Shown here: piece by piece, positions 1-64,000 of the stretch
How positions within the stretch are numbered: position 1 is the first letter of the stretch
How the letters are laid out: each line of letters begins with the position of its first letter
From: Obrimoposthia wandeli
Lineage: Eukaryota
Reading direction: 5' to 3'
Assembly: GCA_977020255.1 (NCBI GenBank)
Contig: CDROCS010005195.1
Location: forward strand, 62,001 to 126,000
Length of the DNA: 64,000 nt
The notes under the pieces: model-generated
The model's input: the letters and a program-made list of their open reading frames with translations, nothing else
Database searches by the model: none
Told to the model about the DNA's origin: nothing
Made by a program: the position numbers and the translations under genes

Positions 1-2
1 CA

Positions 3-6734: not shown

Positions 6735-6879
6735 AAGAATAAAAAAAAAATATATATATATAAAAAAATTAAAAAATAAGAATTAATTAATTAAGGAATT
6801 AATTAAGAACTTTCCTTAATTAGGGAAAAGTTCTATTTAGATAAAATATGCACTTTGGCATTTTAGTTTACAGTTGTTA

Positions 6880-6931: not shown

Positions 6932-6934
6932 GGC

Positions 6935-6982
6935 TTGTTATCTCTAACTTCGCGGTGGATTCCGCGAAGCCAGAGATAACAA
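6935..6982 (-). other. Long RNA hairpin immediately 5' of the hammerhead
   Basis: UUGUUAUCUCU-GG-CUUCGCGG(AAUCCA)CCGCGAAG-UU-AGAGAUAACAA: 21-bp stem, continuous on the minus strand through two G-U pairs. Confidence 0.8.
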
Positions 6983-8837: not shown

Positions 8838-10500
8838 CAAGAAATCATTAAATCTAAAAATCGAGGTAAGAATAAACAATTTTACGTTAAGTGGTACGGA
8901 TATAAAACACTAACATGGATAAAAGCGAACCAGATAGAGTAAAAAAAATATATTGTATTACCATCTAATAGTTGTCCTGATAATACTGCATCGAAATTTA
9001 TTGTTGATTGGGAAAATCCAATAGAACTTCAAGGTGTATGGAAAGTTGCATTGACTGAATTTACTTATAGCAAAACACCTGTTATTTTACACAAGGGTGG
9101 TGAAATTAATTATAAGACATAAATAACAATTGCTTAAGATATGCATACAGTTTATACAAAAATACTTATTAAAATGTTATGTGGTGACCCACAATAAAGA
9201 ATAATAGTTTAAAAATATTAATTAATTTTATGTAAAATTCACCTTTTTACGAATAACATTTTAAAGAAAGATCTTAGATAAAAATCTGAACTACATATAA
9301 ATTAGTAATGAAATATCGTATTAAGAAAGATCCACAAAAATGTGATTTTTGTTAATTAAAATGTTAATTAATTAAACTTTAAAGAAGAATTTCTAGACAT
9401 CTAAAAGTAGCACATAAATGAACAAAACATCATTTTCAAGCATAACCTATTTCCAATTGAAAAATGTACGGCTCTTCAAAATCCCACCTTTGGGTAAAAA
9501 GTCCTATAGTATAAGAAATTACATAAAACTTTACAATACTAACAGGCAAACACACATATTAACGGGTTATCCGATGGAACCTAAGTGGGAAAATTATCTA
9601 AATGACCAAATCCCATTTAGATTAAACAAATCTAAATCAAAGCCCAGCCAGGAAGACCCGGACACAGCGTGTAAATGAGAAAGTATATAAACCCTAAATT
9701 TTTGAAAATAAGATAGATTGTTTTATGCCAACGCCTCCAGTTCGTTCTTTAATTTGCTTATTTTTATTCTTTTTATGTTATTTTATCACCACCATCGCTA
9801 TAATATTTATTTATTTTTTAATTTTACGTAACTCTGAATAATTGTTGGTCCCTGGTCATTGTTTAATGTAATAAAATTATATTACAATTTTTTGTATTTA
9901 ATAAAACCCACTAACAAAGTGAACTTTATCGATTACTTTATACTAGAACAATTTAAATTATTAAATTAAAAAGGCTATAATGAATTTGAAAAATATTGAT
10001 AACAAGTGTTTTCTCTATGCTATCCTTAGCGTGTTAAAGTATAATGAAGTTCGAAATAGACATCGACAAACTTTTTATGGTCGATATTTAAATGAGTTAA
10101 AATGTCAGCCTGGGCCTATGCCATTAGCCTCAATACCTCAATTTGAACGTGATAACCAAATAGCAATTACAGTTTTTAAAAATTTTGAAATTAACATTAT
10201 GTATTTTAAAAATGATGTGTTGAAATATCCTGATGTTAGTATAATTTACCGAACAAAACTACTGGAATGTAATAAAATTGTTAATTCACTTTTGATAGAA
10301 GACTGTAAAACTTATCATTATTGTGGTGTTCCTAATTTAAATAGATTATTTAATTGTCATAGTTATGGTTTATAACTTTACTGGTGTCCGAAATGTCTTT
10401 TTGGTTTTCGAACTGGGATTTCTTATGATAAACATAGAACCCATTGCAATTTTAATACTGATACTACAACATTATTCACTATGCCGGATGATAAATATTG
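8838..10500 (+). mobile_element. Maverick/Polinton remnant (integrase chromodomain, capsid-like ORF start, pPolB N-terminal region)
   Basis: 8838-8942 QEIIKSKNRGKNKQFYVKWYGYKTLTWI (chromodomain). 8949-9120 YIVLPSNSCPDNTASKF...IELQGVWKVALTEFTY, resembling the Polinton minor capsid N-terminus. 9980-10450 NLKNIDNKCFLYAIL...QFERDNQIAITVF...HY...NLNRL...CPKCL...HRTHC. Confidence 0.72.
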
Positions 10501-19900: not shown

Positions 19901-22900
19901 ATGAGCAAGTGCGAATATGTTGTATGTAGTGGTAATGGTAATCCTACGGGTATGTTTGGATGGTGTGGTAAGGCGTGTCGCAGGTTTCATGTAAGATTTT
20001 TGTGGTGTGTGTTTTTGTATTTTTGTATAAATTGCAAGGTGAAAATAATTTGACGATGTTTTGTGTGTATTTTCTCATGTTGGGCTATAGATAATGGTGT
20101 TTTATGAGTTCGTATGTGCCTTTAATTCCAGGGTGTTGGATGTTGTGAAAGTGTGCGATGCTTCTCTGGTTTATTTCTCGTGGTAGTATGATTCTTGTGA
20201 GGCCTGTGTTTGTAGTATCATGCCATATGCTCTTGTACAGAGGAAAATTATACGTATTGTGTGTGAATTTATGTAAGTCTTTTTTGACAATGAGTTCGTT
20301 TGGTTGGAAAAAATTGTCTATAGTATTGATAGTGTTTGTTTGGTCTAAATCGGATGGCCTGGATAATGTGTCGGCGATAATGTCTGTGGAGCCTGGAATA
20401 TACCTGATGTCTGTGTAGAATCTTTCATGTGTAATGCGTGTATGAATGGTTTATGATCTGTGTAGATGATGGAAGTTTTGTAGATTAGTTGGTGTTCGAA
20501 GTGTTGATGGCTTGATATATGCCTAGTAGTTCGCGGTCGGATGTTGAATTCTTACTTTAATGAGTCTTACGTTTTTTGCAGGAAAAAGCTAATTGTAATG
20601 TTATTATGTTGTTGTTCTGATTTAATACGGCTCCGGTTGCTAAGTTGGATGCGTCGGTAGTTAAAGTTATCTGCGCATTGTGTGTTGGACTTGTTAAAGT
20701 GGTGGCAGTTTTGAATGATTCTTTTGCGTTGTTGTTCATTTAGTCTAATTTTCACCTTTTGGTTTTTGTTTTTTATTATCTCGTTTAATGGTGCTAATAT
20801 CCGTGCTGCATTTTTATGTGTAGGTGGTAAAAATTGACCATACCAAGGTATCCGCATAATTGTTTCACTGCTTGTGGTGGGTGTAATTCTGAGATGGTTT
20901 TGAGTTTGTTCACATTCGGGTTGATGCCATCTACGCACAACACACAACCTAAGAAGTTTATTTTCTCCTTGTTGCCTGCACATTTTTCTGTGTTTAGTGT
21001 TAGTTTGTATTTTTCTATGATTTTGTTTACATATTTTATGTCTAAGTTGTGTTGCTTTTGGTTTGGGCTAGCTATTAGTATGTCGTTGATATTTGTTATA
21101 ACGTTCTCTACGTCTGAAAATGTTGTCCATGAAGCATTTGAAAGTGGATATCGTGGTAAGCGGATTTTAGATCTAACTTTGAAAAAATGGTTTCTCCTGC
21201 TGTTCGGCGTGTTATGTCGTAGATGAGTGGTAGTGGATATGCGTCTGGAACTGTTAAAGGTTTCAGTGCTCTGTAATCTTCGCAACGTCTCCATTCTCCA
21301 GAAGTTATCCTTTTCAACATCAAAGCAGAAGCCCAAGGTGATTTTGATGGTCTTATTGTTTTTCTTTTAGGAGGTTGTCCAAGATTGTTTTTGCAGCCGT
21401 AAATTTGTCCGGTGGTAGTGGTCTAACGTTTGCGTGACATGGATATCCTCATGCTATTATTTTGTGTGTCGTTGGTTTAGTTTCTGATTGTGTTGTGGTT
21501 GTTTCCAGCGTGGTTGAGTTATGGATTTGTAAGTTGTGAATGAGTATGTCTTTGTAAGTGTTTGGGTTTGTTGAAATAATTGTGGGATTAATTATGTGAT
21601 AACGTGGTTTATTTTGTGTTGATTTGGAAAAGTTGTGTAATGTGTGTCGTGGTATTATTATTTTATTAAGGCAGTCTATTAATAAGTGGAAGTGTCCTTG
21701 TATATGATGAGATTCAACTTTGTTTCACCATAAGTATTAATTTTTGCGTTGTTTGCAGCTATGAGGAAAATGTTTTTTGTCATGTATATGTGTTTAGTGC
21801 CTGTTGATTTGAGTATTCAGGAAATGGCAGCTTCAGAATCAATACGGAAGCTATATGGTGTGTTTGCAGGGTGCTCCTTGAAAATAGCGTTTAATCCATT
21901 GAACTGTGTGGCTGAAATACCTGGTCTTATGCGTTTTTGAATATGAACATGGACTTTCGCATTTGTATACTCGAAACCGTATGTTTTGTGGTAGTAACAG
22001 AGCGGGTCATTTGTTCTACTGATTATTGTAACAGGATGTCATAGATTGTGGACGATAGGGTAGTGATTGTTTCTCACACCAATTTGTAGGAATGGGTGAG
22101 CGATCGTAGGATGTCAAATTACCAAGGCAACACATTGATTTAATGATTAGTCATTCCATTAAATTCACAATTACAAATTTTCGTAGTGAGGCTACTAATT
22201 GAATTAACACATTTAACAATTAATTAAATTATCATCGATTTATGATAATTTAATGTAATAAACAATAACCATCTAAACACATAATTACACACAATACAAA
22301 AGAGAAAGAGATGATTTAAAGAGGATTAGGAACCCAACAAAATACAATTTAAAACTTAGTTTATACATTTTAATACGTAAAAAGTGATCCAAACTCTAAA
22401 CTTTCTATTAATCACATATTGCCGCCTTAAGCAGACTGATTAGCTAAAAGTAATTTATCATGGATAATTTTGCAGTGAATTCCCAGTATTACTAATTAAA
22501 AGTAGAAAGAAAACAAAAGTTGTTTTTAAATGAAGGAAGATATAAAACCATATGTCCCCATCTCGATAATGAATTAGTTTTCATAAATTAAATAAATTCT
22601 CAGGGAACAGTACAAATCAAACTCGGCGTCTTCCATCCAGAATGTGAAGAAACTTAAATAAATTTTCACTACTGTCAAAATAAATTTCAGTTTAAAGTGT
22701 CCTAATTTTTTAGAAAAGCGGCAGCTTAGTGAAAGACCAATATTTTGCCAAGGTGTATCGGGTTACACGTCACCAGCAGAGGGGGACTGATGGAAAGGAC
22801 AATGCAAACAGTTTATTAACTGTAAGCAATAGATTAAATATACTTATCTAACAACTCCTATAGTCATCCTCACGATTTCATGTTGAGGCTGGGAACATGG

Positions 22901-34900: not shown

Positions 34901-37900
34901 AACCAAAAACAAGCCCTCCGTCACATTTAAAATTAAATTTAGTAAGTTTCTACTATAAATTTATATTTCTGCAAAACTTTATTTCTTTCTTAATGTGTAG
35001 CGATCTTAATTAAGAGTACGTATCACTGCACAATGGGATCTAGTAAGGTTAGCAGTTTTCCGTTCTAGTTGTCCTTCTTTTACACAAAAAACAACAGCAT
35101 TCTGTTCAATTTTATAATAAATATCTAAAATGCTATGAGCTGTAGAAGTTAAGGTCACTTTGATTTTCAATTTTTTTGCATTATAATAACTTAAATAAAA
35201 TTCAAAGGCAACAAAATGTTAATTCATAACTCGGCTATCAATATGTACCCGTTAATTAAAATTTTGAACTGACATATCCATATATAAGATAAAACAAATG
35301 GTAAAATATACTAATTAAAAGCATCACCCTGTGCACACACGAAACCACCTCAGTCAAAGTCACCCATGGCAGCATCACAAGTCCAGAATATTTTCATCCA
35401 AATTTCCCAGTTTGAGGATTATGTTCTGACGTAAACTCACAAGCCCATACAATTCTAGTAGTTGTCTAAGAAGGCGGAGCTGACTTTAAAATACATAAAA
35501 TGGGAATTTAAATAGGTCCAACTAAGTTTGATAAAGACATTTCATCCTACACTCCATTTCAACCTTTTCATAGGAATTGTTGAAATTGAATGAAAGTGAC
35601 AGACAACCCTTTTCTATCAGTATCAACCATATAAATCATAATTAAATGAATGCCTCCTGGGTCATTAAAAGACAACCCAATATTTCTCGAGATCGATTAG
35701 GAAGACAGCCCCTGTGTCAATAAACTATAACTATTGCGCATCCTCAGATATGACATTCGTTGAATTTACAGACCTACTTTATTCTAAGCTTGTACAAACT
35801 TTATATTGTATAACTAATATTTGATTGGAAGAAAATATTGTAGATACTTTGAGTTATTTGAACTCTGTGTCATTTGGGAAATACTTCTAAATTCCTAATA
35901 TTTAGCAGACCTATTTGAATACAGCTGACTCTTTTAGATTTTTTTGTATATTAGAAAGAATTTAAATAAGTAAATTTTATGTTTTCAAATGTAAGCTTTA
36001 ATTTTTTTAGACCATTATTTAGTCATCTTTTTACTTTTAGAACCATAAAATGTCATCAAGAAAACGTAAAATAAGTTTATGTTTTTAAAGCAATTTTAGA
36101 AGGTAATTTGAAACTTTTTAACCGATGGCTTTTATTTATGAATATTTTAACAATATTGATTATAAAGATAAAAAACTTTTACAATAAGCCGATGCAAAAA
36201 AAGAAGTTAAAGGAAAATACTCTGATTTATGACAGAAAAAATAAATTTAAATTACAAAACATAAATTCATTGTAATATTTTATAAAGACATTCAAATTAG
36301 TGAGTTAACAAATAACAACAAAAAATATGAAAATTAAAAACATTATTAAAAAAGTATAACAAAAGAAGAATTTTTAAGATACTGTTTTATAATTTCTTAC
36401 GAATTTGCATTCGTACCTTTTGAAAATTAAAACTGTTGATCGTTAATTTGCCAAAGTCAGGTTGAACAACAGCGAATTAAAATATTAACGCTGTCGGAAG
36501 GAATACCCACCTCATCCATGATGTTGTAGATATCTTCTAGACGATTTCCAATGTGGACGGCTTGTTCACGCGTGCCCAACAAATTGATGTTGAAATATAC
36601 GAGGAATTTTCTAGCACCAACAAGTGTAGCTCCCCACTGAGGCACAAATTCAGCAACTCCAAAATCGGGTTTGAGATCCTCCTTCAGAATCTGTAATGGA
36701 AAAGATGGATGATGAATGGATGATGGATGGATGATGGATGGATGAAATATGGATTTTTTTAAAAATAACCTTGTCTTTCATTTCTTCATATTCGGTGGAG
36801 AAAAGATCTTCGATCATGTTCTTCCTATCATCGTCTGTCACACTCTCGCCATAGATGTACACTGGAAAGACAAAATGTGTTAAAAGATACTTCAATTTTT
36901 AGAAACGTTTAGAACTAATTTTTACTTGAAATTTTTTAATTCATTTTATCGAAATTGTTTCAAATTCGTTTTACATAACACATAACATAATATAACGCTG
37001 ATTTCTTAATAATTGCAAGAATTATTTTTCAAAGACACTTTAAATCAGAAATTTAAGCAGTTTCTAAACAGGAATTTCTTGACGTATTATTTCAATTGTA
37101 TGACTCATTTCACTGCTAACGGTAAATTATAAAGCTGGCATGTGTCATTGGAATAATGAGTTTATTTGCACAAGAACTTGCACTCCAGTTAGAAATTTAA
37201 ATTTAAAGTCTACAATATATGATTAAAAAGTTATTTAACTTAATTATTATAAAGAATTATTATAAAGAATTAATTAATTCAGAAATAAAGAAATGGCTAG
37301 CTGTTGTAATATTAAAAGTATGAATATGTATTCAAATTATAAGCACAAACAATGAAAGTTTTCTCGATTTAATGTTATGTTTACTGTTCCAATTTTATTG
37401 ATTCGAAAATATAAATATAATTTTGAATGTAATTTTAAGCGTTAAAAATAAAATATTTTATTTTCATGTCATTTATTTCATTTAACTAACACTAATATTT
37501 AATAAATTCAAAAACACTTCCTGTTTTACTTTATTCTTCGTAATATTTGCTAAATAGTAAAGTCTTCAGCTGCCTCTTGAATTTTTCAACATTAATACAG
37601 TTTTTTTATGTTTATCAATAAATTATTGTAAAGATTCTTAGCATAAATTTCAAATACTCCATCGCTTTGTTTATGATTTGTAAATTACTTAACCAATCTG
37701 CAGTCATCATCGTTGCTCCTAGGATGTATGATCACTGCTAGAGTAGAGGATCATATAACTATTTGGGCTTTGTGAGAGAATATATATTTTTTTATAATAA
37801 GTAGGATTTTAAATTTAATTCTAGCATTGATTGGTTTGTAATTGAGACTTCATTATATCTACACTAGAACAAGCACTTTTCTTTAATTCGAATATAATTC

Positions 37901-45340: not shown

Positions 45341-45419
45341 ATAGCGAGTTAAGTAGTGGATGAACTCTAGTTAGAATTCAAGATGTTAGCTTTGTTCTAA
45401 CAAAGTTCACTGACATGAT

Positions 45420-45900
45420 ATATCTTTCGGGGAGTTCATACATTCCTTCACCTAGATCTCTTCAACTTTCACGTTCCATTGTTAACGTACAAAACAGTGA
45501 TAACCTTTGCTTTCTGTATAGCGTGTTGGCCATCCTCAAAGGGGTGTAATTACTGAGCACAGAGAGCGTGTCAGTAAATATATCCCTTTTTTAAATGAGT
45601 TTTAGTATCGTGGAATAAATTTTCCTGTTAACTTAACTGTGATATCAAGATTTGAACACATTAATAACTTGAGTATTAATGTATTCAAATGTAATACTTA
45701 TGTCCCAGTTAATGTATCAGATGAAGAATTTTTTAAAATCCTTTTGTAGATGTAATTTATAGGAGTAAAAATGAGGGGACTCCGGTCAACTTAATTTTGC
45801 TCGAACAAAATAAGAAATTCTACTATGCTGCAATTCAAATTTAGATCGTCTTCTAAATTTAGATAATGGATCCTACCGGTTAGGATAAGGTGTAAGTGGT
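45420..45900 (+). mobile_element. Second Maverick/Polinton pPolB N-terminal remnant
   Basis: GSSYIPSP...IVNVQNSDNLCFLYSVLAIL...FPVNLTVISRFEHINNLSINVF; same family as 9980-10450. Confidence 0.7.
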
Positions 45901-46329
45901 GTCATAGATGTTTGCATGTATTCCGATCCGAGCTCTCTTACAGCAAACATCTGACATAATTTACACTGAATCCTGATGACAATACGCTATATGGCATGCC
46001 TAAGGATAAGGATTTAAAATCCAGGGATCGGGCAAAATGTATACCCATGGAATTCAGGGTGTATGCTGATCAATTCTAGCATTGCACGACCAGTATGAGA
46101 GTATTCACCGACCGGTTTCGGCAGGACTAATATTCTTAGGCCTCAATTTAACTCAATATCATGAATTTTCCGATTCAAATTGTATTTTAGATTTTATGTT
46201 AAAATTAGAAGAATTAGGAACCAATATGGTATGATTTTAATGCTCATCAAGCAATGATCCTGACAGAATATAGACTGGGTTAATTTTAATTCTAGTATAT
46301 CATGTTATTTGTGTGGTACTCAGTCTAAG

Positions 46330-48409
46330 TTAGTCAGAGTTACAGGGCGATACTTGGGAGTGGCGTGCAACCTCTGTAACATTAGCCGTCGACTCAGAAA
46401 GTTGAATAAGAATCGATTATTAAAAGACGACTATTCAACGGTAATAGAAAATTGTATGACTAAAGGATACATAAAAATGTTAACGCTAGATAAAGAGTAA
46501 AAACAAAGTGGTTATTACTTCACTTTCCAGTGGTAAAAAAGGAAAAAAGTGAGAATAGTCTTTGACGCAGCGGGGAAAAGTAATAATATGAGTCTAAATG
46601 AGGCAACCCATTGTGGTCCCGATCTGCAAGGAGACCTTATTGCAATTATTTTGCGATTCCGAAGGAATGCAATAGCGTTAGTGTGTGACGTTTCAGAGAT
46701 GTACTTACAGATCAAGGTATGTAAGGAAGACCGGGCATGGCTAAGGTTCTATGGAGAATAGAGAGAACCAGAGGGAAATGTATGAATTTCAGAGAGTAGT
46801 CTTTGAAATAAATGCTTCACTGTTCTTAGCTCAACTGGTAACCCGAGTAAACGCAGAAACTTTTAAAGTGAAGTACCCAAGAGCCAGTGAGACAATTTTG
46901 CAATCAACCTACATGGACTATAGTCTATATTCAGTGTCTTCAGTAATCGAAGCAGATCAGCTAAAATATCAGTTGATGGAAATATGGGTGAATGCAGGGA
47001 TGATTACAAGGAAGTGGATTAGCAATAGCCCAGAGTTTAATGAAAAATACCTCTTTCAGAAAGATCAAATGTATTACAATTAGATGACAAAGGGGTAATT
47101 TAACAGTAAAGACATTAGGCGTACACTGGGATGCCAAATCCGACAATTTTTTCATAGTAACAAAATTTGACGAAGTCGACGACATAACCAAACGATCTTT
47201 CTTAAGCCTTTTGTCAAAAGAGTTTGATCCATTAAGTTTTGTTAGCCCGATAGTCATCAGAGCCAAAATTATTATGCAGGAAGTCTGGCTTACAGGGTCG
47301 GATTTGGATCAAAAAGTAAATTAAGAATTAACTAGGAGAATAGTACAATAGATAGCAGATTGAAAGCGATTGAAAGAGATCAAGATTCCGAGATGGATGA
47401 TAACGAGTGAGAAACAGCAAGAAATTCACGTATTCGTGGATGCTTCGACTACCGCGTATAGTGCAGTGGCATACATGCGTAATGAAGACGCAGGCAGAGT
47501 GATGATGCGATTGATGGCAGCTAAAAGTAGAGTTGCCCCAGTGACAATAAAAAGTGTACCCAGGTTAGATGAACCCAGGCAATGATTGGAGTGAAGTTAG
47601 CACAAACAATATGGGAAGCCTTAAATTATATAGAAGTAAAAACAACATTTTGGTCGGACAGCAAGAACGTATTATGATGGATACGCCAGCCGGAAAGAGA
47701 CTACAACCCCTTTGTAACCAACCGATTGAGGATGATCCAAGAGGACACTGATATAAAGCTTTGGAGGTATGTGCCCACGAAGCTAAATCCAGCAGATATA
47801 CTATCGCGGGGAGTCGATGTACAGCTATTGATTGGTGAGACAATTTGGTGGGAAGGACCGGAGTACCTAAAGGAACAGAAAGAAAATTGGCCAGTTAATT
47901 TAGATTTAGAAGAAATACAGTCAGATAAAGAGAAAAAGAAACGGTACAAAGAAGTAACAATGTTCATACAGGAAGTAAACTGGTTCAAGATAGAGACTTA
48001 TTTTGACTTAACAAGATTGAAGAGAGTCTTAGCTTGGATACTACGATTTGCACGAAATATAAAGTTACCTCGAAATCGCAGACTTGTAGGCGAGCTGAAG
48101 ATGGATGAAGTGGAAGAAGGGATGCAGTTGTTGATATAGCATGAACAAATTCAGTATTTCTGCATGGAATACCAAAGGTTAATAAAGAAGAAAGAGATAG
48201 AGAGAACAAGCTCATTATTAAAGTTGAAACCGTGGGTTGATGAAAAAGAAATAATCAGAGCCAATACCCAAATTATTAACGCTGAGTTTTTAGATAATGA
48301 CACAAAATATCCCATAGTGTTATCGGAAAAGAGTTGGCTGACTAGATTAATCATAAAAGAAACACACGAGAGGTTACGACATTACGCCGGGGTAAGTGGG
48401 GAGATGTGA
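46330..48409 (+). mobile_element. Decayed Bel/Pao retrotransposon pol, truncated at the start of integrase
   Basis: RIVFDAA, GPDLQ..L..I.LRFR, DVSEMYLQI, STYMD, HVFVDASTTAY, AKSRVAP, WRYVPTKLNPADILSRG, WWEGP, RVLAWILRF, HERLRHYAG. Confidence 0.93.
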
Positions 48410-48850
48410 TGACTTCGACTCAAGGCAATAGGTCCCCCCTGAAGTAGATCAAATTTCTCCCGAGTAGGCCTATTGTAGGTCAATTTTCTGACGAGTAGAC
48501 ATGTTGGAGGTCAAATTTCTCCCGAGTAGTGCGCAAAAATAATAATGATATTTGCGCCCGGTGGGCGTGAATTGTGATCGCCCTGAAGGGCGCGTTGTGG
48601 CGGTTGGGGCGATTTTTTTTGGGTGGCGGAACCCCTCTATTCGTTGCTTTTTTCAATTTTTTTAATATTTTCACTCCACACACATGCACGGTTTTAAAGA
48701 ACAGTGGTACACCCCTTAGGGGAGAGAGAAGGGGTGGATTAGACCGAACATATACACCTACTACGCTAAATTATTACGGAATTCTACACAGTTTTCAAAA
48801 TATTATTAAATTCGAAATAATATATGAGACGATCTAAACTCCCCTTGGCC
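48410..48850 (-). repeat. Element terminus copy A: three 31-bp-spaced repeats, GC hairpins, conserved blocks
   Basis: G(G/A)TCAA(A/T)TTTCT(CC/GA)CGAGTAG at 48447, 48478, 48509. Hairpins 48531-48557 and 48579-48592. Blocks 48669-48704 and 48737-48762 are inverted homologues of 60231-60266 and 60186-60211. Confidence 0.8.
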
Positions 48851-51795: not shown

Positions 51796-53137
51796 TCAGT
51801 TTGTCTCTCCGGCAGCAGTAGCTGGTTTCTTCTTGTTCTTGATGGGTTCTGCTAAAACGGCCTTGACTACAGCACTCTGGATTTTATGATCTGACTGGTA
51901 GATGCTGGAATCAAATGGCAACCCCGTCAACCGCATAGGGCCATTTGGCATCAGCAGCACCGTGTACTTGAAGTGGGCTACAGATTCTCCTTCCTTCTCA
52001 AACATGACCGGCAGAGCATCCACGAGACCATGTTTACAGCATTCAATGACAGCAATTTTAGCCTTTGTCTGATCCAAGAACGAACGAAGAGTGAAGGGAT
52101 ACCCCACATACTTATTGGTAACATCACTAAAGAATTCTAAAAAGAAAATTTGTAATTAGAATTAAAAAAAGATACTTACGCCTTGAAGCCTTCAGCTTTA
52201 GATTGTACGTATCCGCTCCGATATTTCTTTTATATACAGTAGTCTTTGCATCACGTTCTTTCACTTTGCCATCTCCAGATGTTACAATTACATCAACAGT
52301 CCAAACTTGATTGACTTCGAAATTAACCTGTTCTGCACTCTTTTTTTGTTCTTCGGAGGGATTAACACTAAAAGTCTTTGCATTTTCATAGATGTCTTTC
52401 TGGAATCCATTGACAACACAATCTAAACAATAATATTGTATCTCATGATTGAAACTAACTTTCTAAAACTTTGCATTCAAATTCAGCCGCTGTATTTATT
52501 ATAGGTTCAGAAACGTCTTTGTTCTATATAATTTTAAAATTATACATGTGGCATATTAATCTTACATTTTTTCCTGGTTTAATTAATCGCAATGCAGCTT
52601 CAGCGCAATTATATGCAGCTAAAATAGCGTCAGCCTTGCGACCAGCAATTTTGTTATCTTTTGATGCTCCTACAACAAATGTGTGACCAACAACAGCCGC
52701 ATAACCATCAACTTGGACACCAACATCACTTAATATATCATTAAAATAATTGCAGTAAATAAATTATACATTTTAATCATATCGTTTTTCTCGATAATCT
52801 CGTCAGTTTGATCCAGAAGAGGTGAGAAGTTGCAGACTACATTATTACGGGAGATGCATGTTGGAAACGCAACACCCTTCTTGACATCTTTGTCTTTCTT
52901 GAAAATTTTAGCAGTCTCTTCCGCAATTCTGTCATCACCAAAAATGCAAAGACTCAGTACACTTGATCCAGGTTCGCATTTTTTAATGAGTTCCTTCAAA
53001 ATTTCTAGAATTTTTTAAAATAAAAGAGAAAACAATGACTTACTCTGTGTAATTTCAGCCGACATTTTATATTTGTTTAAGATGGTATCATCTTCCAAAT
53101 TATTTAATTCGACATCAGATTCACTATCGCTGGACAT
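51796..53137 (-). CDS. PA2G4: Proliferation-associated 2G4 / EBP1, 6 exons, 379 aa
   Basis: Exons 53137-53044, 53004-52770, 52728-52566, 52523-52460, 52422-52180, 52136-51796. GT-AG introns of 39, 41, 42, 37 and 43 nt. Motifs KGVAFPTCIS, DVGVQVDGY, YPFTLR, EGESVAHFKYTVLLMPNG. Confidence 0.97.
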
Positions 53138-54360
53138 TTTCGATAAAAACACACTTAATTTTCAAAAACGGTGGTATAATATTTGATTTAAACAAAAGTA
53201 GAAAGTATTGGATAATTTTAATAATTAACAAGAAACTGATTTGCTCAAATTAACGTATTTTCGATTTAATTTAATTCATTTTAATTTAAAACACAAAAAA
53301 ACTTCAGAAATAAAATTGTTTGTCGTGTTCATGCACTAATAAATTTTACCAATATTGCAGATTGATTTTTTTCATTATTTTCAATTTTTATTATGAATAC
53401 CTTTTTTGCTTATTCAAGAATTAGTAATTACTGTTTATGGTTCAATTATTAGAGTTATAAGGTTTTAAAAATACATCAAAATATACATTCAGAATAATCT
53501 ATATAAAATATTTATATAGTATGAAATATTTAATTATAGATTAAAAACATTAAAGAAGACATTTTCTAGAATTTAATAAAATTTATTTAAAATTAATTAT
53601 GATTATTTTGATAAAATAATTTAATAAATAAAAAGATTTTATCTTTGAAAGAAAGTGCTAAGGTCTGTAAATTTATGTTTTTATCAACAATCTTTACTTA
53701 CATATTCCTAGAATTAAAATAAAAGAGTATATATATATTATTATTATATAATTAAACTTACTTTTTGGCAAAAAATATAAGTATTATTACAATTTACTGT
53801 TAAACTTTTTATTTTAAAATGTGTTTCAATAATTAAATGTATAAATTGCTTATAATAACTATAGAAAATTGTATTATTAATTTTATAATAAAACTTTTAA
53901 TATTAGAGCTTTCTTCTTTATTTCGACGGCTGTTTTTCACTATCAAATTTACTTAATATAATTAAGCTTTTTAATTAAGTTACTAAATCTAAAAAGCTTT
54001 CTGATGTTAAATTTAAAAAGACAAGAACCTTTTAGATATTATTCATAATTCCAAATTTTAATGTAAGAAAATTACGGTGTTTGAATTTTTTAAAAGATTT
54101 TTTGAATTTAAAATGTTCGGTACATCCCACACTGCCAGTTCTGTTTACTAAAATTGGCTCACTAGCTATTTGTATTAAGCTTTGTGATTTCAATAAAGAA
54201 ATCCACACATCTTAACCATTTAAAGTTTGAAAATAAGTTAAGGTATTTTTAAATTTATTTCAAACTAACCAATACTTTTTGAATAAATTTTATTTCTGAA
54301 CAATTTTTATCTATAGTCCAAATAAAATTTTATAAATACGTACAATTATAAAATAAGACT

Positions 54361-54795
54361 ATGGCACCAATTCGCAAAGGAAAGAAGGCTCCACCTCAAG
54401 GTTGGGAAATGATTGAGTCGACGATTGAGGAGTTCAAGAGGGAAATGAGTAATGCCGTGGCAGATCCCCACGAAGGTAAGCGGAAGGTGGAGGCGATGTG
54501 GCCAGTTTTGCGAATCCATCATAAGAGGTCGCGGTTCATATTTGACATGTTCCACAAACGCCAGTCGATCAGCAAGCAGCTGTACGAGTACTGTTTGCAG
54601 GAGAAGATCGCGGACAAGATGCTGTTGGCCAAGTGGAAGAAACAAGGCTACGAGGGTCTGTGCTGCCTGGCCTGCATCCAGCAGTCAAACACGGCCTTCA
54701 AGACCAACTGTATCTGTAGAGTCCCCAAATCCAAACTGGAAGAGGGCAAGATTGTAGAATGTCAAACTTGCGGATGTCGCGGATGTTCTGGCTAA
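54361..54795 (+). CDS. BUD31: BUD31/G10 splicing factor, intronless, 144 aa
   Basis: [62 protein letters not shown]. Confidence 0.98.
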
Positions 54796-55239
54796 CTTCG
54801 TACCTGCCTTTTTGATACTGAATTACTGGCTGTAATACATAAACTCAATTGCTGTATATATATTTTTCATTGTATTTGCCATCTTTTTGTTTTAGCGTGT
54901 TAAAGTAATATTTACCACATATTTGTCAAAATGGATATAAGCTTCTTAAAACCTCCTTTCCAGATCAACATGTTCTAGCATTAAATTCTTTAATTAGTTT
55001 TATTTATTAAAAATTTTGTAAATACTTTTTTTTTCTTGTTGTATCACCACTTCCATTTTAATAAATCTCGGAGTTTGTTGAAAGTTTGTAGCGCAATGTG
55101 AAAATCCTGTGATTAAGTTTGAAAGATGTGACATTTTACTTTTCATAAAATTATAACATTTTAGTAATTCATGAATTTATATTCTTACACAATTTATGTT
55201 CTACTCCACCTTTGTGAGATTTATTATAACTATCTAAAT

Positions 55240-58200
55240 ACGAGATAGAAAACGATAGTCAAAAAGAACCGGTCGGTGGTCATATACTTCATGGCACACC
55301 AAAAAGACTCAAACAGGAATACCATGATGTGATAATGGTATTACGCAATTCACACGGGAAAAAAGATATAATGAGAGTTCATTTGATCGACGCTGAGACA
55401 AAAAAGGTAATATGTCAGATGGTCACAAAATACTTTGATGGAAAGACCATTGTATGTAATATACCGGTAACTCACTAATTAAAAACATATCAAACAGAAG
55501 TATCTGTAAAGTTGAGCGTAATAGAAGGATTTCATTCGCCAACCCAACCGGAAGTAACAAACAATAAAATCGTTAAAGCAACGGCAGAGTTACGCATTAA
55601 CAGCAGATACCGAAAGTGGGAAGCTAAAAATAAACCACAAAGAATCAATATGATCAGAGAACAAGCGACAAACTCAATCCAGCCAAAATATCATGTTGAA
55701 ATAGTAATATCTGCGCCAAGTGTGATTACATCGATAAACGACGAAATTATAATTTTACTAAAAAATCGATGGCCATCATCGACCGAGATACGAGTCAATT
55801 TAGTGAATTATGCGAAAACACCGATATCTAAGCTGAATGTCACCTATTTCGATGGATTGTCCATCATGGGTAAATTGGAAACAATCGTCATGTGCTAAGG
55901 AGCACAGTTCCAAGTTGAGATACTTAAGGATAGTGTAATACCGTATCCGATTCACAGAGACTCAGGACCAGTCAATCCAATTATTCTAACCCCTTCATTA
56001 ATTTCAGTTCAAACAAACATACCAGAACACCCTTCGAGCGAGTCTACTCAAGACAGTGAACCTGAAAGCAGCGATCCAGAGTCAACAGAATCCAAAGATA
56101 ACATAATAGAGCGATTCGGAAGAACCATGGAGGTTGAATTTGCTAAAGATAGCAGAAAAATACGAAACATGGACTTCGTGAAACAGAATATACAAGAAAG
56201 GCGAATTAAATCCGCAGAAAAGACCGAGTCGGAAGAGGAACTAACAAAGGAACAGACATCAGAGACAAAGATGAATATCTCTCCAGCAATACGAATGCTG
56301 AGAGGAAAGAAACTGGCGAAATTATTCATCATATATGAACAAATAGAGAAGCGATTAGAAAGACTAAAACTTGAGGAGTCAGAATTGATGCCACCAATGA
56401 GTGAGATAATTCCAGATATGTTATACCTCGGAAATGTGGAAGACGCAACAGACGAAAAGAAACTGTTGGAAAAAGATATAACATATGTGATCAATGTTAA
56501 AATGAATCACGAATTGCGATACCAGACAATCAGAGCTATGACATTAAGAGTGAAAGACTCAATGGAGGCTAATCTTCTCGAATGGTTCGGAGAAACAAAC
56601 GATATAATTTACACAGAACTCCAAAACCAAGGAAAAGTATTGGTACATTCAGAAAGGAATCTCTAGTTCAGCAACCTTGGTATTAGCATATCTAATAAAG
56701 AGTAGACGAATGCAGGTACTAGAAGCGCTGAAATATCTACAAGAAAGACGAAGTATCGCGAACCCAAACCTTAATTTTTTGAGACAATTGTCAAATTACC
56801 AACTCCTGTTGCAAGAACTGAGACGGATGGATGACATTCCCGAAGATCCAAAGGAAAAGAATTTCCTCCAATCACTATCGTTGACCAGATTATTCTTAGC
56901 AGGAGTCGACAAAATCACCCAGATAATGCCGAAAGTATTTATATGTCACCCAGGAGATATAGATACTGCTGGATTAAAGTTCCACAGTATCAACCGAGTA
57001 ATTAACATTGTTGAAGTTGAAAACGAGATAATCAGTATATGTCAAAATACTGAAGATGACACTACACGATATATACATGCTTCAAATCGGGAGGTAAACG
57101 ATGCACAACAATACCTGAGGAAGTTGACTCAAACAATCCAAGCCGAAGTCACAGAAGGAAACGGCGTTCTGATATATCAGAAGAAAGGTACAATGTTAGC
57201 GCCTACCATAGGTGTATCCTTGTTGGTAGAATACCATGATCATACACCAGAGGAAGCGATGGTATACATCAAACAGAATAGACCAGATACGGAATTCAAA
57301 CCGTTACTCGTTCGAGAAATAAAGAAATACTCCGAAAGAAGGAAGCAACAACAAGAAATGAATGAGGTTACAACAACAGTGCCCAGCTATCAGTACCGAA
57401 GATTGCTAGCACTAGGCTTGTTAAGTTGTCTAATGCCAACAACGGGAGCACAAGAGATAGGCTCCAACCACGGAAATAGTTCCTGGTTTAAAGAAATCAA
57501 CAACTACATCATGCAGTACAATACACCGACGCTGATGATTCTATTAGTGTTGATAGGACTGATCGATGTTTGGCTAATCAGAAAATGTTTCCGATCCATA
57601 AGAACCGACAGAGAAAGATTCCAGTTTGTAAAAATGAAGAGACCAAACGGACCAACAAACCAGGTACTTGTTTATCTAGACGAAAGGATCGAGGAGAACA
57701 TAGTGAATGAAGCGATATATTATCCACAAAACAGACTACTGAATCAATTCCGAATGGACTACGAAGCTGACCGACAGCACACACTTGATAGAATATCAGC
57801 AACGTTCGCAGGATGCGGGCGAAGAAAACGAATTGTAAAGGAAATACAAAAAGATGCGGATACAAAAGGTACGACGTATATATTTGACGGCGATGTCATC
57901 AAAACACGTGAGTATGGAAGTAAGAGAGTGATAATCGAAACGAAGGAAGGACATAAAACATGCTTGTCCACCAAAAATGGATTCAGAAAGCTGGTGATAC
58001 AAGGCAAACAGGTACAGTTGATTATAGGAAAAACCGGAATCGAAGAAATGTCAAAGCAACGACAGACAACCAAGACAAAACGGCATAACCAGAAACAGAT
58101 ATATCTCAAACGAATAATAATCAAAACTGTTTGCAAAAGGACAATCAAGGCCCTGTGCACTGTTGCACAAGGATTGATCTACGGAGTAGAATTGGATTGG

Positions 58201-59726
58201 TACTACAAGCCATTCCAACCGGTAAAGCGGAATTGATGACACTAGCTGAATATAATCTATTTTTGAGAAATCTAGACAACACCCTAGAAATAATCAAGAC
58301 GTCTCACAGTAAAGCCGTGATGATCATGTGTGTGAAAGGATGTTCAGAACGAGTATGTATAATACCAGCGACAGAAATGAAAACACTAAATGGATATTAT
58401 GGAGTTAGTGTTGTCACATGTGAAGGATACACATTTGGACAAACTAAAATAGTACTTCTCAGTGACATGTCCAACCAAAGTACACATAAATTTAAAATAT
58501 TAACCATCAAAAGTAAAGGGATACAAGCAATACGTTATGGTATTCTAGAATTGGTTAATCCAATACTGGCATTGATTATCGGAATCATAATATTAATATT
58601 ACTCATCTTGTTTTGTTGTACAAAGATCGAGTTGAAATCAAAAAAGAAACGTCACGATCTCGCAAGATGAACAGGTCAAATGAATTTACAAAAATTAGAC
58701 ACAACTATACCAAGGCCAGCATTCATAAATGAACCAGCACCGGAGTATCAGCCAACGATATATGAACATATCGAGGAAAGACCGTACTTCATGAGTAATT
58801 TGGGTTATCTCAGAGAAGTTCCTGAGATCCGAACCCGAACGATAATAGGAATCATGCTGATCATACAAATCACCACGACCGAGGTTGGTTGCGAGATCAT
58901 GATCAGCAAATGGAGACAAGATACGATACGTGCGTTATACATAGAAATACCTCTACTAAAAACGAATCCCATAGTAGACATTCAACTACAAACATCCGCA
59001 ACCGAAAATGTCAATCAGAAATTGTATGTAATCCGCTAGATTGAAATAAAGATTGACAAACATACACTTTACTACCGACTGATACTATTTTATTATGAAA
59101 AGGTATTATACCTACGAATAACAATATCAAAAAAGAAACGGATTATCCAAATTATCCGAACAAAGTCTGTAATATTGCCCAACGACGAGCGCATCTGGAA
59201 AGTTATTGACAGGATTATGGTCACAGATAAACGACGTAAAACTGTATGGAATTATGTTAATTTATTCTTCAGATTGTTAGAAACTGACCAGGTAACAGTG
59301 GCGTGTCCCAATCCAGATGACGGAATCAAATTCGCAATACAACCCCAAATGTTGGTACCACATTATGATGCAGAATGTCTATGTAACCGAATCTCCAGTA
59401 ATGCTAAAGAGACCTCTACCGTGATCATAGTAATAACAGGTCAAATATTCTATATAACTCTAAGATACCAGACACATCGATTTCGTGGACTAGGTATGAG
59501 CATCAGACCCAATAAATTCAATTCCGGGAAACCAAACACAGTCATAAAGAAGGCAAAGGTGAAAGGAAGACAACTCCATTCCGAGAAGCCAAAAGCAGTC
59601 ATAAAAAAAGACAGAGGTGAAAGGAAAAGAGCTCAAGACCAGAAACCAAAGCACAGTTATCGAGAGGACAAGAGCGAAGGGAACGATTCCACTGGATCTC
59701 AAATCTCGAATAATAATACCCTTTAG
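55240..59726 (+). pseudogene. Decayed multidomain polyprotein cassette: Ig/IPT-like region, two tandem DUSP-like domains, signal/TM segments (probably retroelement cargo)
   Basis: 55240-56666 is one frame with two TAA stops. DUSP1 SEIIPDMLYLGN...ITYVINV...GKVLVHS[fs]GISSSATLVLAYLIK...A...LQERRSIANPNLNFLRQL. DUSP2 ITQIMPKVFI...RVINI...NGVLIY..KG...APTIGVSLL...EEAMVYIKQNRP. TM-like LMILLVLIGLIDVWLI and LALIIGIIILILLILFCC. Later ORFs are linked by stops or frameshifts. Confidence 0.72.
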
Positions 59727-60065
59727 ACAAAAAACAAAATATCCGAATCCGTGATTTATTAGAAAATCAGACATAATACACGGAAACCGAACAGCACCAC
59801 TTGAAACGCCATCCAAACCGACAAACATCAAAATAAAGTACTATTACCAATCCTCAGACAGCGGGATAACTACAGTCAATGCTTTAATTGTAATGGCCGT
59901 AGTTTCAACTGCAGTAGTTCTATTTACAGTCGTGTGCATGAAAGGCAGTCAGATATTCCCAAGAATACGACGAAGATGCAAAGAGCTACGATGCTGTAAT
60001 ACACCCATGATGGAAGAAGTGGAATTGCGACCCTTACCTCCGCCTCCCATTAAGACATGACAAGT

Positions 60066-60800
60066 CAGAGGAGGTTGTAGATAAATTAGTGTGTAAATAT
60101 ATGTAGAGATATGTAGAAGCGAATGTACAAACAAGTGTCGAATTATGTAAAATTCATGTAGAAATTAATTGTCATCGTGTATTTAAGTAGGTGGATGTGT
60201 CCGGTCTAATCAACACCCCCCTCCCCCCTACTGTCCTTTAAAACCGTGCATGTGTGTGGAGTGAAATTTCGTGTAGGTGTGTAGAAAAATTTTCTACCCC
60301 CCTCCCAAACACTAAAAAAAAAAAAAACTCCATATAACACCCTATAAATTTAAAAATCTCATAATGCTCCCAAAATTTTGATTAAGGTCCTGAGAGGCCA
60401 AAAAATTTGGGCCCGCGGTGGATCAACGAGTAATAAATACAGGCTCGCGAAAATTTATACGCGAGAATATATTTTTCGCGCCCTGCGGGCGCGAAAAAAT
60501 TTTCCTTATAAAAATTTATATCCATACATACATACAAGGTCATAAAAAAAAATTTCTTTATAAGAATTTATAGGGTCGCAAAAATTTTTAAATAATCAAC
60601 TACATAAATTCGAAATAATTTTCATTTTTATTTGATGAGTCATCAAATTAGTCATCATGACCTTAAATGATCTTGACCTCATGATGACCTAGACAACTTT
60701 GTACCCTTGACCTCATGATGACCTTGCCCTCATGATGATGACCTCATAAGGTCATGACCTTAACTTGACCTGAAATGAGTTCATGATTTTTTTATACCAT
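60066..60800 (+). repeat. Element terminus copy B (PPT-like AGAGGAGG then TGTAG; conserved blocks; GC hairpins; TGACCT cluster)
   Basis: Purine tract before TGTAG at ~60076; blocks 60186-60211 and 60231-60266; hairpins 60444-60465 and 60472-60498; eight TGACCT plus one AGGTCA in 60658-60771. Confidence 0.7.
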
Positions 60801-60969
60801 CCAAACATGTACAGTCAAAAAATATTACTATTTTAAATCCAAAGACATACATGTATTCAAACATCAACAAAATTTAAGAAAATACCATAAATTCTTTGAA
60901 TAATACGTTTTCATTGGACGTTAAACTTATACAACAAAATCTTAAGAAAATCTTAAGAAAATAGTTTTA

Positions 60970-61222
60970 TTTTCGAATAAAATATGTTTTATCCAATGAC
61001 ATTCCAGCATTCAAACATAGTTAAAAAATTGAGAAAAGCCTACTGATTTTCAAATAAATTATTTGAATAACCCGCTATTGGACGACAAAAGTTTAGTGAT
61101 ATATTTTCGAATAAAATATGTTTTATCCAATGACATTCCACATTCAAACATAGTTAAAAAAATTGAGAAAAGCCTACTGATTTTCAAATAAATTATTTGA
61201 ATAACCCACTCTCATTGGACGA
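60970..61222. repeat. Direct duplication of ~118 bp
   Basis: TATTTTCGAATAAAATATGTTTTATCCAATGACATTCCA...TGAATAACCC...ATTGGACGA at ~60970 and ~61103. Confidence 0.92.
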
Positions 61223-61312
61223 TAAAAGAGGGTTAGTCTATTATTTTTGTATATAAGGAAACCTCTTTTCATTATTTTTCATAAATCAAATATCATCAAT
61301 CAAGAAGCAAGA

Positions 61313-63392
61313 ATGTCAAATTTCAATAACGTCGATTTGGATGAAGAGATGGAGGTTCAGCTGTATGGAGATCTCTCTCCAGTACAGCAGCGAACGCCAC
61401 CACCGGCGCAGTACATTGACTTACTTAGTCAAGACTCGTCAGTGGTGAGTGAAGGAGACGAAGGAGAAGCAGCAGCAAGAGCCCAACTGTTGCTAGAAGA
61501 AGAACCGCCATTGGCCAGCTCAACTCCAAGAGAACAACCAATGAGCGTGCGAGGTGGGGTACAGAGATCCCAATATATCGATCTGACTAGTCAGGATTCG
61601 ATAGAGAATTGGGAAGACTGTACTCCCAGGCTGAACATAGAAGCCAATCGTCCGGCAACTTCAGCAGTAGCAGCAAGGAGATCCAATCTCTTCGACAATT
61701 TTGAGGCGGCAATCAAATGCCCCTGGAAATTGATCCCGCTGTCTCAACCGGAGATAATACTGGCACCAGACTCAGACGAGGAGCTGTTTACTGATGACGT
61801 TCCGTCGGATGGGGAGGAGGAGTGGATACAGCCAAGTATCGGAGCCCCGGGAGCCAACGAGTCCATGGTTGCAGAAATGGATGAAGATGAGTGGCATCTG
61901 TTCACTGACGAATGGGATGGTCTCACTCCCTCTACAACTCCGACCCCGATACCCAACAATACAGTGCCTGATCCATTCAGAAGGCCACAATCTCCAATAC
62001 GTCCTGTTAGGAGAATAAAGGCGACGAATGAGGTTAGAAATCATTTATTTAAAATGTTTTTTAATTTTATTTTCAGAAACTGCAACTTGATTTGGCACCG
62101 TCAGTGACCACGATTGAGAGGCAAATTGAACCGCAATACTTGGCGAGTCAATGTAGCCAGGATGATCCCAGGAGTGATTAGAGATACCTACCAACTCCGG
62201 CTAAAATTGAGGTATATTATTATAAATTAGTAAATTTATTTAATTATTCACTTAGGAAGCTGAGTTGGTGGAGGAAATTTGGGAGGAGGCATCTCGGAGA
62301 CTACCTGTCGATAGGAAGCAAGCGGCAGTTAAGAAACCTCGACGTCATCGAATCAAAACCAATACGGTCCATCGGAAGAAGGCCAAGTTGGTGAAACAGG
62401 CTAATCTGCCCGTCATCGAGGTAAATTATTTATATGTTTAAATTTTATTAATGTTTTTTGTTGTTGCAGGAACCAATAATATTAACTGAGGAGACATGGG
62501 CCAAAATTTCTCCTTTCCCGCAGAAGCGAACGAGGCAGGCTACTGTACAGAAGACACGGCGTCTTAGAAAGGCAAAATCCTGTCTGCTCAATTCGAGTGA
62601 AGTAACGATTGAGCGGCAGGAAAATCTTCCGTATAAGATTATTGAGGTAATTTTTTGTTATTTTAAATATATTTTTAATTAAATAAATTTTATTTTTGTT
62701 TTCATTTGCAGGAACCTGTCCGGATAATTGAGGAGACTTGGGGAGAAGTTACTCCTTTCCCTAAGAAAAGGACAAAGCGGGCAGAGGTGAAGAAGACGAG
62801 GCGCTCGAGAAAAATTCGGACCTCAATTGGCCATTATTCTGAAGCGGTGATTGGCCAGCAGGAGATTATCCCTCCTCCAATGGACAACGAGCCTATCCTA
62901 TATGAGAGGATCCCAGTCTCACCAATCGAGATAAGTCCGCACTCGAGTCAACAACGCCTGCAGGAGACTGCTTCTCCTCGTCCAACAACCAGCCAAAACT
63001 TGAAGAGGGCCTGGGATGACGCTGGTTTGGACGAATTCCTGGCGGAACTGGATACACCGGCAATGCTTCCAGATTCGCGTGGGCAACATGATGCCGTCTC
63101 ACGCCAGCTTCAGCGCGAGAAGGAGGAGAAACAGAAGAAAGCTCCGCGGAAGAGGAAAGCTACTGCTTCTATGTCGGGGCCATCAACATCGGCTGCACCT
63201 CCTCCCAAATAGTTGCGGCAACTATTGCCAAACCCGAGGGAAGGACAATTGCTGTACAGCAACCGGTGAAGCCGACCAAAGAAGAAGGAACCAGTACCAC
63301 TTTCTCCTATCAAAATAAGTCGGAGGGAATACGACCCGGATGATCCCAATGATGACTTAGCAAAAATGTTCAAAAATATAATTTATAAACAT
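61313..63392 (+). pseudogene. Spliced gene for a low-complexity acidic/basic protein with three homologous exons; disabled
   Basis: Exons 61313-62032, 62077-62211 (contains in-frame TAG), 62256-62420, 62470-62646, 62712-~63392 (frameshifts after 63209). Phase-0 GT-AG introns of 44, 44, 49 and 65 nt. Confidence 0.7.
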
Positions 63393-63427
63393 TAGTTTCT
63401 TGTGTTGTCTTTTTATTATTATTTATT

Positions 63428-63560
63428 TTAGAATTTAGTAATATTAAAATATATTACTTAAGTTTATTAAAATTACAAGATTAAAAATAAAGTTTAGAAT
63501 TTATTAATATTAAAATATCCTCCTTAAGTTTATTAAAATAACAAGATTAAAAATAAAGTT
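63428..63560. repeat. Tandem duplication of ~66 bp
   Basis: TTTAGAATTTA.TAATATTAAAATAT...TTAAGTTTATTAAAAT.ACAAGATTAAAAATAAAGT occurs twice. Confidence 0.85.
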
Positions 63561-63754
63561 AACTTATTCGAATGTGATTGGATTGTTAAGGAATAATTAA
63601 ATTTTTTTAGGATTAAATATAAATGCAATGATTAGTTATATATTTATTAAACTTTCATTTGATAAATATATTTTAATTGCTTGTGATTGGATTAAAAATA
63701 TCTTAAATTTACATATATAGGTTCAAATTTATTAACATCTTCATAATTAAAAAA

Positions 63755-64000
63755 ATGGAATTTATTAAATTGCAAAGTTTGGTGACGAAGATCGAGGCAA
63801 ATATAAGAATAAATGAGAAGAAAGGAGACTTACGAAAGAGGATCCTCAACCAGAATTTATATACTGCTGTCGCGACCGAGTGGAATCGTCGGGTGGAGAT
63901 TCAGGACAGGCGGCTAGCAGAACGACGTCGGGTTGTGGAGTGGAACAAGAAAATCGAAATGGAAAAAAAGAAGGTGGAGGAAAAAAGAAGAGAAGAGACG
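63755..64000 (+). CDS. 5' part of an unknown charged/coiled-coil protein, runs off the window
   Basis: ATG at 63755, 82 open codons to the window end (MEFIKLQSLVTKIEAN...EKKKVEEKRREET). Confidence 0.5.
   Translation, partial: MEFIKLQSLVTKIEANIRINEKKGDLRKRILNQNLYTAVATEWNRRVEIQDRRLAERRRVVEWNKKIEMEKKKVEEKRREET

Follow-up and report, generated by a model that had tools for sequence, protein, structure and literature searches.

The locus considered here raises the question of what kind of gene could have left a long, intron-free and A-rich coding sequence, with two DUSP-fold domains and several putative membrane anchors, downstream of the host gene BUD31 in a 64,000-nucleotide stretch of the Obrimoposthia wandeli contig CDROCS010005195.1 (hereafter, the window). 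The explanation we favour, to which we give about an even chance, is that it represents the decayed, 5'-truncated last open reading frame (ORF), in the env or accessory position, of a large cargo-carrying long terminal repeat (LTR) retroelement of a probable flatworm host. A mobile-element origin was favoured because the sequence combines a retroelement-like codon make-up, lack of introns, 5' truncation, decay and a purine tract with TGT after its last stop.

The coding sequence runs on the plus strand from 55230 to 60060 (~1,610 codons). It was joined from four frame pieces (55230-56666, 56608-58236, 58089-59726 and 59755-60060) and needs no introns to reach its final stop at 60058-60060, whereas introns do occur in neighbouring genes. 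Its description as a long, intron-free and A-rich coding sequence in the initial annotation was confirmed, since the 1,608-codon path contained 5 stops versus 110.9 expected from base make-up, and the AT skew was +0.2 to +0.4 across the frame; the upstream flank contained 12 stops in 144 codons. The same annotation had ended the sequence at 59726, at a tract resembling a polypurine tract. Such a tract does exist, at 60067-60074, and the frame runs 330 nt beyond the proposed end, to 60060. The features recognised along the frame and at its 3' border, all on the plus strand, are the following.

55278-55960, plus: beta-rich unit of ~100 residues, present twice in tandem (Smith-Waterman)
55476, 55896, 58668 and 59037, plus: in-frame stops of the decayed frame
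55971-56387, plus: acidic, charged linker
56388-56817, plus: DUSP domain 1, MAP-kinase-phosphatase-like (Pfam DSPc, tree, PDB-type relatives)
near 56650, within 58089-58236 and near 59725-59755, plus: three frame changes
56890-57345, plus: DUSP domain 2, pseudophosphatase (Pfam DSPc)
57175-57204, plus: P-loop of domain 2, YQKKGTMLAP, in frame
57397-57585, plus: internal segment resembling a signal peptide, separated from membrane segment 1 by a short spacer that has one N-glycosylation sequon (hydropathy; putative role)
57586-58562, plus: basic, Cys-containing region with no family match in the searches
58542-58619, plus: membrane segment 2 (Kyte-Doolittle 3.58), followed by Cys-Cys and a basic tail
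58839-58898, plus: second internal signal-peptide-like segment (hydropathy; putative role)
59515-59666, plus: three in-frame Lys-rich repeats of 57-58 nt
59866-59940, plus: C-terminal membrane anchor (hydropathy); the tail between it and the stop at 60058-60060 is basic and rich in Cys and Pro
60067-60182, plus: run of eight purines and a T, with TGTAG after it; candidate polypurine tract and beginning of a 3' LTR
60186-60266, plus: 80-nt motif, 77% shared with 48669-48762 (minus)

The left edge of the frame is sharp: within 100 nt, at ~55200-55250, the GC content changed from 0.23 to 0.38 and the AT skew from -0.09 to +0.28. This composition edge, together with the lack of an in-frame start at the 5' end, indicated that the frame had been cut there. 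The copy is 5'-truncated and decayed, and yields no intact product. Its 4-5 stops would correspond to 1.4-2.0% substitution since the loss of constraint, and an assembly error is disfavoured as the source of the frame breaks because BUD31 and 4 out of 4 exon pieces of a PA2G4-like gene were unbroken in the same window. One of the frame changes coincides with a TGATG stop-start overlap at 58234-58238 (plus), which could be a genuine stop-restart junction and not a product of decay. Regarding codon make-up, A occupied 43% of the third positions of the polyprotein frame, compared with 52% in a gypsy pol and 39% in a Pao element of the window, and with 18% and 20% in the host genes BUD31 and PA2G4 (exon), respectively.

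Both of the DUSP-fold domains proposed for this frame were recovered with Pfam DSPc. The two halves of domain 1, upstream and downstream of a frame break, gave E values of 3.4e-10 and 1.7e-21, and when joined with an X at the break they scored 91.8 bits (cut-off 33.5) over positions 1-131 of the 133 in the model. The break lies at 56649-56655 and covers the nucleophile position. The upstream frame ends in V-L-V-H and the downstream frame reads Q-K-G-I-S-S-S-A-T, aligning gap-free to Q-A-G-V-S-R-S-A-T of DUSP10, so that the motif can be assembled either as H-X-Q-K-G-I-S-S-S-A, without gaps, or as HS-E-x-GISSS, with the break placed two codons later. The latter letters, and the break across them, had been correctly noticed in the initial annotation; the Cys-to-Ser change read from them is not established, because the break falls on the nucleophile and two placements are possible. 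For comparison, a phmmer search with the ORF at 56608-58233 against 1.84 billion proteins returned 691 matches, the best 150 of which all fell in the DUSP part and contained 148 HCx5R-type motifs. Among these, the nucleophile was Cys in 148 out of 148 and the Arg was kept in 147, and the commonest residue at +1 was Gln (37 motifs), with Glu in 9. Domain 1 keeps the general-acid Asp (as aligned), the His and the Gly of an active enzyme.

The closest match to domain 1 among the best 150 of the 691 was a protein with rhodanese and DSPc domains (P0005; 61/132 identical residues, 46%), and the best relative of solved structure was DUSP10 (E 3e-19), followed by DUSP1, STYX, DUSP2 and DUSP4; none of the 54 solved-structure rows matched carried a viral name. 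In a tree built with 45 of the 64 full-length domains among the hits, domain 1 joined P0005 on a branch of 0.85 changes per column, versus 6-9 for domain 2. No Pfam Rhodanese match, which would have revealed a kinase-docking domain, was found upstream of domain 1. Judged by its best hits, domain 1 thus appears nearest to animal mitogen-activated protein (MAP)-kinase phosphatases (MKPs) of the DUSP10 type and not to viral ones, and its simplest reading would be a captured MKP catalytic domain.

The situation of domain 2 was different, as its match to DSPc (E 5.2e-8, model positions 7-131) scored 33.2 bits, slightly below the 33.5 cut-off, and its motif, quoted as IYQKKGTMLA in the initial annotation and present with those letters, has Gln at the Cys position and Leu at the Arg position, with Asn at that of the general acid, all in frame. 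Each of these replacements involves several base differences, far beyond what 2% decay would produce. Taken together with the long branch of this domain, they identify domain 2 as a long-standing pseudophosphatase. The proposal of tandem pseudophosphatases is thus borne out for one of the two domains; in domain 1 the nucleophile is unreadable at the break. The accompanying idea of a substrate trap fits poorly. Traps need the Arg to hold phosphate, and its loss should abolish phosphate binding, as known from the chemistry of protein tyrosine phosphatases (PTPs). In this copy the phosphate-binding Arg is absent from both domains, and consequently neither resembles a phosphate-binding trap. Domain 2 is similar to STYX and MK-STYX in having a DUSP fold with an unusable catalytic motif; nevertheless, STYX is described in the excerpted text of PMC3507883 as differing from active enzymes at the Cys only, whereas domain 2 has lost Cys, Arg and general acid and would not be a phosphate binder of the STYX type.

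Outside the phosphatase domains, the two copies of the N-terminal beta-rich unit shared 14 of 57 aligned residues, with a Smith-Waterman score of 54 that none of 2,000 shuffles reached, for segments chosen by eye; BLASTP detected no internal duplication at 55278-55960. An Ig/IPT-like region had been proposed before the phosphatases, and signal and transmembrane segments after them. The former received no support from Pfam, PDB, atlas or fold searches (best Z 3.5), while hydropathy did reveal five hydrophobic segments, two of them signal-like (57403-57438 and 58839-58874) and three anchor-like (57529-57564, 58542-58619 and 59866-59940). Since no signal or membrane segment precedes the phosphatase domains, these would be cytosolic. 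The tail after membrane segment 2 contains the sequence TIYEHI (58755-58772, plus), which we take to fit TxYxxI, a switch motif bound by SH2 proteins, and which is a lead only. No profile match to class I, II or III Env proteins or fusogens was found, and the corresponding fold search, in which the modelled sequence reached no further than 58236, was empty at E 0.001; the single-sequence models for this and the N-terminal region had pLDDT values of 37 and 35, respectively, which makes the fold searches uninformative. Word-seeded searches for homologues of the ORF at 56608-58233, at near and longer lengths, returned nothing, although they were weak enough to miss ordinary DUSPs too. Protein scans and a motif scan of viral contigs, as well as metagenome scans, were empty, 0 of 8 pieces matched PHROGs, 0 of 10 window proteins were found by exact look-up in a protein collection, and the protein atlas gave no usable match (its hypothetical clusters, three in number and at 0.90-0.92, showed low recognition). 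Two weak Pfam hints, 2L_N_poxvirus (E 0.005) and ribosomal L5 (E 0.007), were below the cut-off and were set aside. Four public sequencing runs from a single study contained 0.54-0.61 of the sequence words of the stretch, with no RNA run among those listed, an overlap that carries no weight as evidence.

At the 3' end, the purine tract starts 7 nt past the last stop and, with the TG after it, occupies 60067-60078. A run of at least eight purines followed by TGT occurred once in the region and 22 times in the window on both strands. No LTR partner or direct repeat was found window-wide, the 5' end of the element being cut, and no poly(A) follows the final stop. The 80-nt motif at 60186 and its relative at 48669-48762 both begin AGTAGGTG, sharing an AGTAG start, and similarity flanking them was not significant on either side (14-39 of 200); the motif was not found in viral or metagenome contigs. 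It could be either the end of the polyprotein's own element or the start of a second element inserted there, and Polinton-like elements may have the two copies as their termini. The inverted repeat seen at the two borders was attributed to chance (42 of 200 shuffles), and a Penelope/Terminon reading was unsupported, as no hammerhead or other Rfam match was found in the 55230-60060 region.

The window as a whole is AT-rich animal sequence, rich in mobile DNA, and its features most relevant to the polyprotein are these.

1-7500, plus: broken Ty3/gypsy element with protease, reverse transcriptase, RNase H and integrase, then extra ORFs (Pfam)
~3670-4873, plus: ORF of this Ty3/gypsy element with signal- and membrane-like segments
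6255-6710, plus: DEDD exonuclease of the same element, as in bdelloid Vesta/Juno (RNase_T E 3.8e-7, read with X)
~51800-53140, minus: M24 gene with short introns, probably PA2G4-like, head to head with BUD31 (Peptidase_M24)
54361-54795, plus: BUD31, intact and intron-free (Pfam E 9e-61)

BUD31 shared 71% identity with a protein from Opisthorchis and 67% with one from Macrostomum. In a quick tree of 30 rows, 29 of which had been picked from the best 120 listed matches, mostly named ones, it fell with 3 named flatworms and one further row, apart from the other 25 (SH-aLRT 91). This grouping indicates that the host is probably a flatworm. It also argues against the comparison with polydnavirus PTPs made in the initial annotation, as does the assignment of both domains to DSPc and not to the classical PTP family (PF00102). 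The parallel drawn there with the element at 1-7500 held in part: no sequence link between the polyprotein and the rest of the window, that element included, was detected by tblastn (best E 0.069), and the likeness lies in the membrane ORF and DEDD exonuclease that the gypsy element carries. The presence of such an element in the window, like the planarian Burro elements described below, was counted in favour of the retroelement origin.

Several known systems resemble the polyprotein in part. The planarian Burro, a giant Ty3/gypsy element, has a 4,873-residue ORF with AIR1, SMC, MATH, BIR, ankyrin, BCL2, SUMO-like, dUTPase and env parts, the env lying between gag and pol, according to the excerpted review text (PMC6431247). 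The likeness consists of a flatworm host (probable in our case), a very long polyprotein and the joining of host regulatory domains to membrane or env parts, and for Burro, too, the review describes fragments that have decayed through stops and frameshifts (PMC6431247, same excerpts). By contrast, Burro has gag and pol, neither of which is attached to the polyprotein here; none of the Burro cargo domains listed above gave a Pfam match in the 8 pieces searched. In bdelloids, the ORF3 of Vesta, Juno and TelKA LTR elements is of the env, GDSL, DEDDy, TM/CC or short-ORF type, so that captured enzymes and membrane ORFs follow pol, an arrangement that the window's element at 1-7500 matches with its DEDD exonuclease (PMC5408684, in part). 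The word phosphatase did not occur in the excerpted Burro review (PMC6431247), in the portion of the main bdelloid text (PMC5408684) or, by a term search, in the partial text of an errantivirus survey (PMC13524379).

As for the domains themselves, the catalytic domain of the DUSP10/MKP5 group is the closest to domain 1; this copy differs from that group in its tandem second domain, membrane tether and broken P-loop and in lacking the rhodanese docking domain. Receptor PTPs (D1/D2) and Cdc14 (A/B) are tandem phosphatases with an active and a dead domain. They share with P0008 and P0059, two proteins among the matches listed, the pairing of one near-canonical and one degenerate domain, although they differ from the present pair in PTP subfamily or in domain order, and are chromosomal genes and not mobile cargo. 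Poxvirus VH1, baculovirus PTP2 and the bracovirus PTPs, the latter of classical PTP type, are small, free-standing genes of DNA viruses. The analogy with them is functional, namely parasite-encoded damping of host signalling, and neither the solved relatives of domain 1 nor the best 150 of its 691 protein matches support kinship.

Several observations weigh against a last ORF of a cargo-carrying retroelement with an MKP-derived enzyme. No gag, pol or 5' LTR adjoins the frame, whose upstream neighbour is the 3' flank of BUD31; of the earlier suggestion of a retroelement or endogenous virus carrying a signalling gene, the mobile origin is favoured and the captured enzyme is upheld. The purine tract, besides being short, was sought post hoc, the placement of the host rests on a single 144-residue gene, and the topology deduced from hydropathy is not fully consistent between membrane segments 1 and 2. 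No relatives of the non-DUSP parts were found (the large library was queried with 56608-58233 only), leaving them with no env homology and no family. The joining of domain 1 to P0005 had weak support (80/63), and its Ser at the Arg position would be uncommon under 2% decay. This last point bears most on a variant compatible with the same origin, to which we give somewhat less than an even chance, in which, as in the version of the initial annotation, neither domain had any activity left even in the working element, and both served as decoys or scaffolds. With Ser in one domain and Leu in the other where the Arg should be, and domain 2 showing that the element tolerates dead domains, a Ser arising in domain 1 from 1.4-2% decay alone seems unlikely; yet domain 1 has a short branch and retains its general acid as well as the His and Gly, the Ser nucleophile hinges on where the break is placed, and the gap-free placement has at +1 the commonest residue, Gln. 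Within this variant, a STYX-like trap that binds phosphate is the least probable form, given the loss of Arg. Domain 1 may have been dead or active beforehand: the Ser argues for prior loss, while the conserved residues and short branch argue for an enzyme hit in this copy, and we put at even the chances that the working element had an active enzyme in this domain. The probability of a lesion falling by chance inside the 10-codon motif was 1.9-4.9%, and on the nucleophile 0.6-1.5%, a coincidence that would be explained if insertions encoding a functional enzyme were purged by the host.

Other origins were considered less probable. An endogenised piece of a large RNA virus, such as a nido-like structural polyprotein inserted by a resident reverse transcriptase, would account for an A-rich, intron-free polyprotein with internal signals, several anchors and a truncated 5' end, and also for the TGATG overlap. 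An endogenous viral element of ~1,610 codons with a 3' flank is less common than a transposable element fragment, the purine tract and TGT come right after the stop, and viral-contig scans, fold search and PHROGs gave no viral match. Giant invertebrate nidoviruses do carry captured enzymes (PMC11848433), although the excerpted text of that paper names no DUSP and mentions an ADP-ribose phosphatase only; we regard this origin as quite unlikely. The same degree of doubt applies to the possibility that the gene belongs to a large DNA element (a Polinton-like one or some other endogenous DNA virus) reaching into 60183-64000. The recurrence of the 80-nt motif and the TGACCT-rich repeats and intron-containing gene downstream speak for it, as do fragments elsewhere in the window that we take to be Polinton-like. 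Nevertheless, the polyprotein and the gene at 61313 differ in intron content and in third-position A (43% versus 32%), the ownership tests of the motif were not significant on either side, and the AGTAG start of both copies looks like a terminus facing away from the polyprotein, following the usual rule for such termini. Polintons are also abundant targets of PIWI-interacting RNAs in planarians (PMC8532177, in part), a further point in favour of a DNA element. Finally, a pseudogene of an unusual host gene, either a processed copy or an intron-free paralogue, would suit the host-MKP-like domain 1, and the adjacent BUD31 is intron-free too. We consider it very unlikely, as the codon make-up is unlike that of host genes, no poly(A) follows the stop, and tandem DUSPs with repeated signal-plus-anchor units occurred in none of the best 150 of the 691 matches from 1.84 billion representatives. 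To our knowledge, no host protein joins these parts.

If the favoured retroelement origin is right, the polyprotein of a working element would be translated and cut by signal peptidase at its internal signals. The first signal segment would keep the N-terminal part, with its two beta units, the linker, DUSP1 and DUSP2, on the cytosolic side and tethered to the endoplasmic reticulum (ER), and the remainder would give rise to two or three membrane proteins, whose roles could resemble those of env proteins or receptors. DUSP1 would be the catalytic domain of a host MAP-kinase phosphatase, captured with loss of its docking domain, and DUSP2 an older or faster-drifting copy of it, devoid of chemistry and acting as a binding or regulatory partner, in the way of the active and dead pairs of receptor PTPs and Cdc14. 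The likely purpose would be to damp stress signalling through p38/JNK in cells with an active element. The full scenario, in which a giant flatworm retroelement family captured an MKP, duplicated it into an active-plus-dead tandem, convergent with D1/D2 of receptor PTPs, and delivered it to the ER from an env-position polyprotein to turn off p38/JNK, with host selection favouring insertions hit in the active site, is in our opinion doubtful as a whole.

At present, the evidence amounts to a single broken fragment whose parent element is unproven. Should that element be confirmed, DUSPs would be a new type of cargo for a known kind of element, as no DUSP carried by a retroelement was found in the literature searched; the primary Burro paper, Repbase and supplements were outside that search and could alter this conclusion. 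Large DNA viruses are known to encode phosphatases that dampen signalling in their hosts, and retroelement cargo has so far consisted mostly of nucleases, esterases and helicases, together with the apoptosis and ubiquitin domains of the planarian Burro. An MKP pair in a membrane polyprotein would, if real, show that a retroelement can intervene directly in a kinase pathway. It would also offer an assayable enzyme for the idea, put forward in the excerpted text of PMC6431247, that the giant elements of flatworms 'meddle' with the regulation of their hosts.

Other observations were made along the window. The sequence downstream of the polyprotein, at 60650-63212 (plus), contains repeats rich in TGACCT and a duplication of 134 nt, as well as an acidic, low-complexity gene that has introns and matched neither Pfam nor PHROG. 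Directly past the probable LTR of the gypsy element, a 12-nt unit is repeated in a 66-copy array with a 47-nt higher-order period (7509-8291). Related decayed ORF pieces, ~50% alike over 38 residues, lie at 8840-10500 and 45400-46500 (plus); they presumably resemble Polinton polymerase regions, and gave no Pfam match other than a weak chromodomain at 8841-8920 (E 0.001). A decayed BEL/Pao pol fragment (Peptidase_A17 E 8e-16) occupies 46500-48400 (plus), and a second decayed Ty3/gypsy fragment, with RVT_1 and SH3_Tf2-1, 19279-21422 (minus). Weak matches to FTCD_C and FTCD_N at 16797-17132 and 36460-36777 (minus; E 9e-4 and 3e-3) are perhaps exons of one host gene with large introns filled by transposable elements. 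An isolated fragment of large-subunit rRNA (99.6 bits) was located at 17307-17494 (minus), and a more decayed look-alike was found upstream of BUD31, at 54105-54243.

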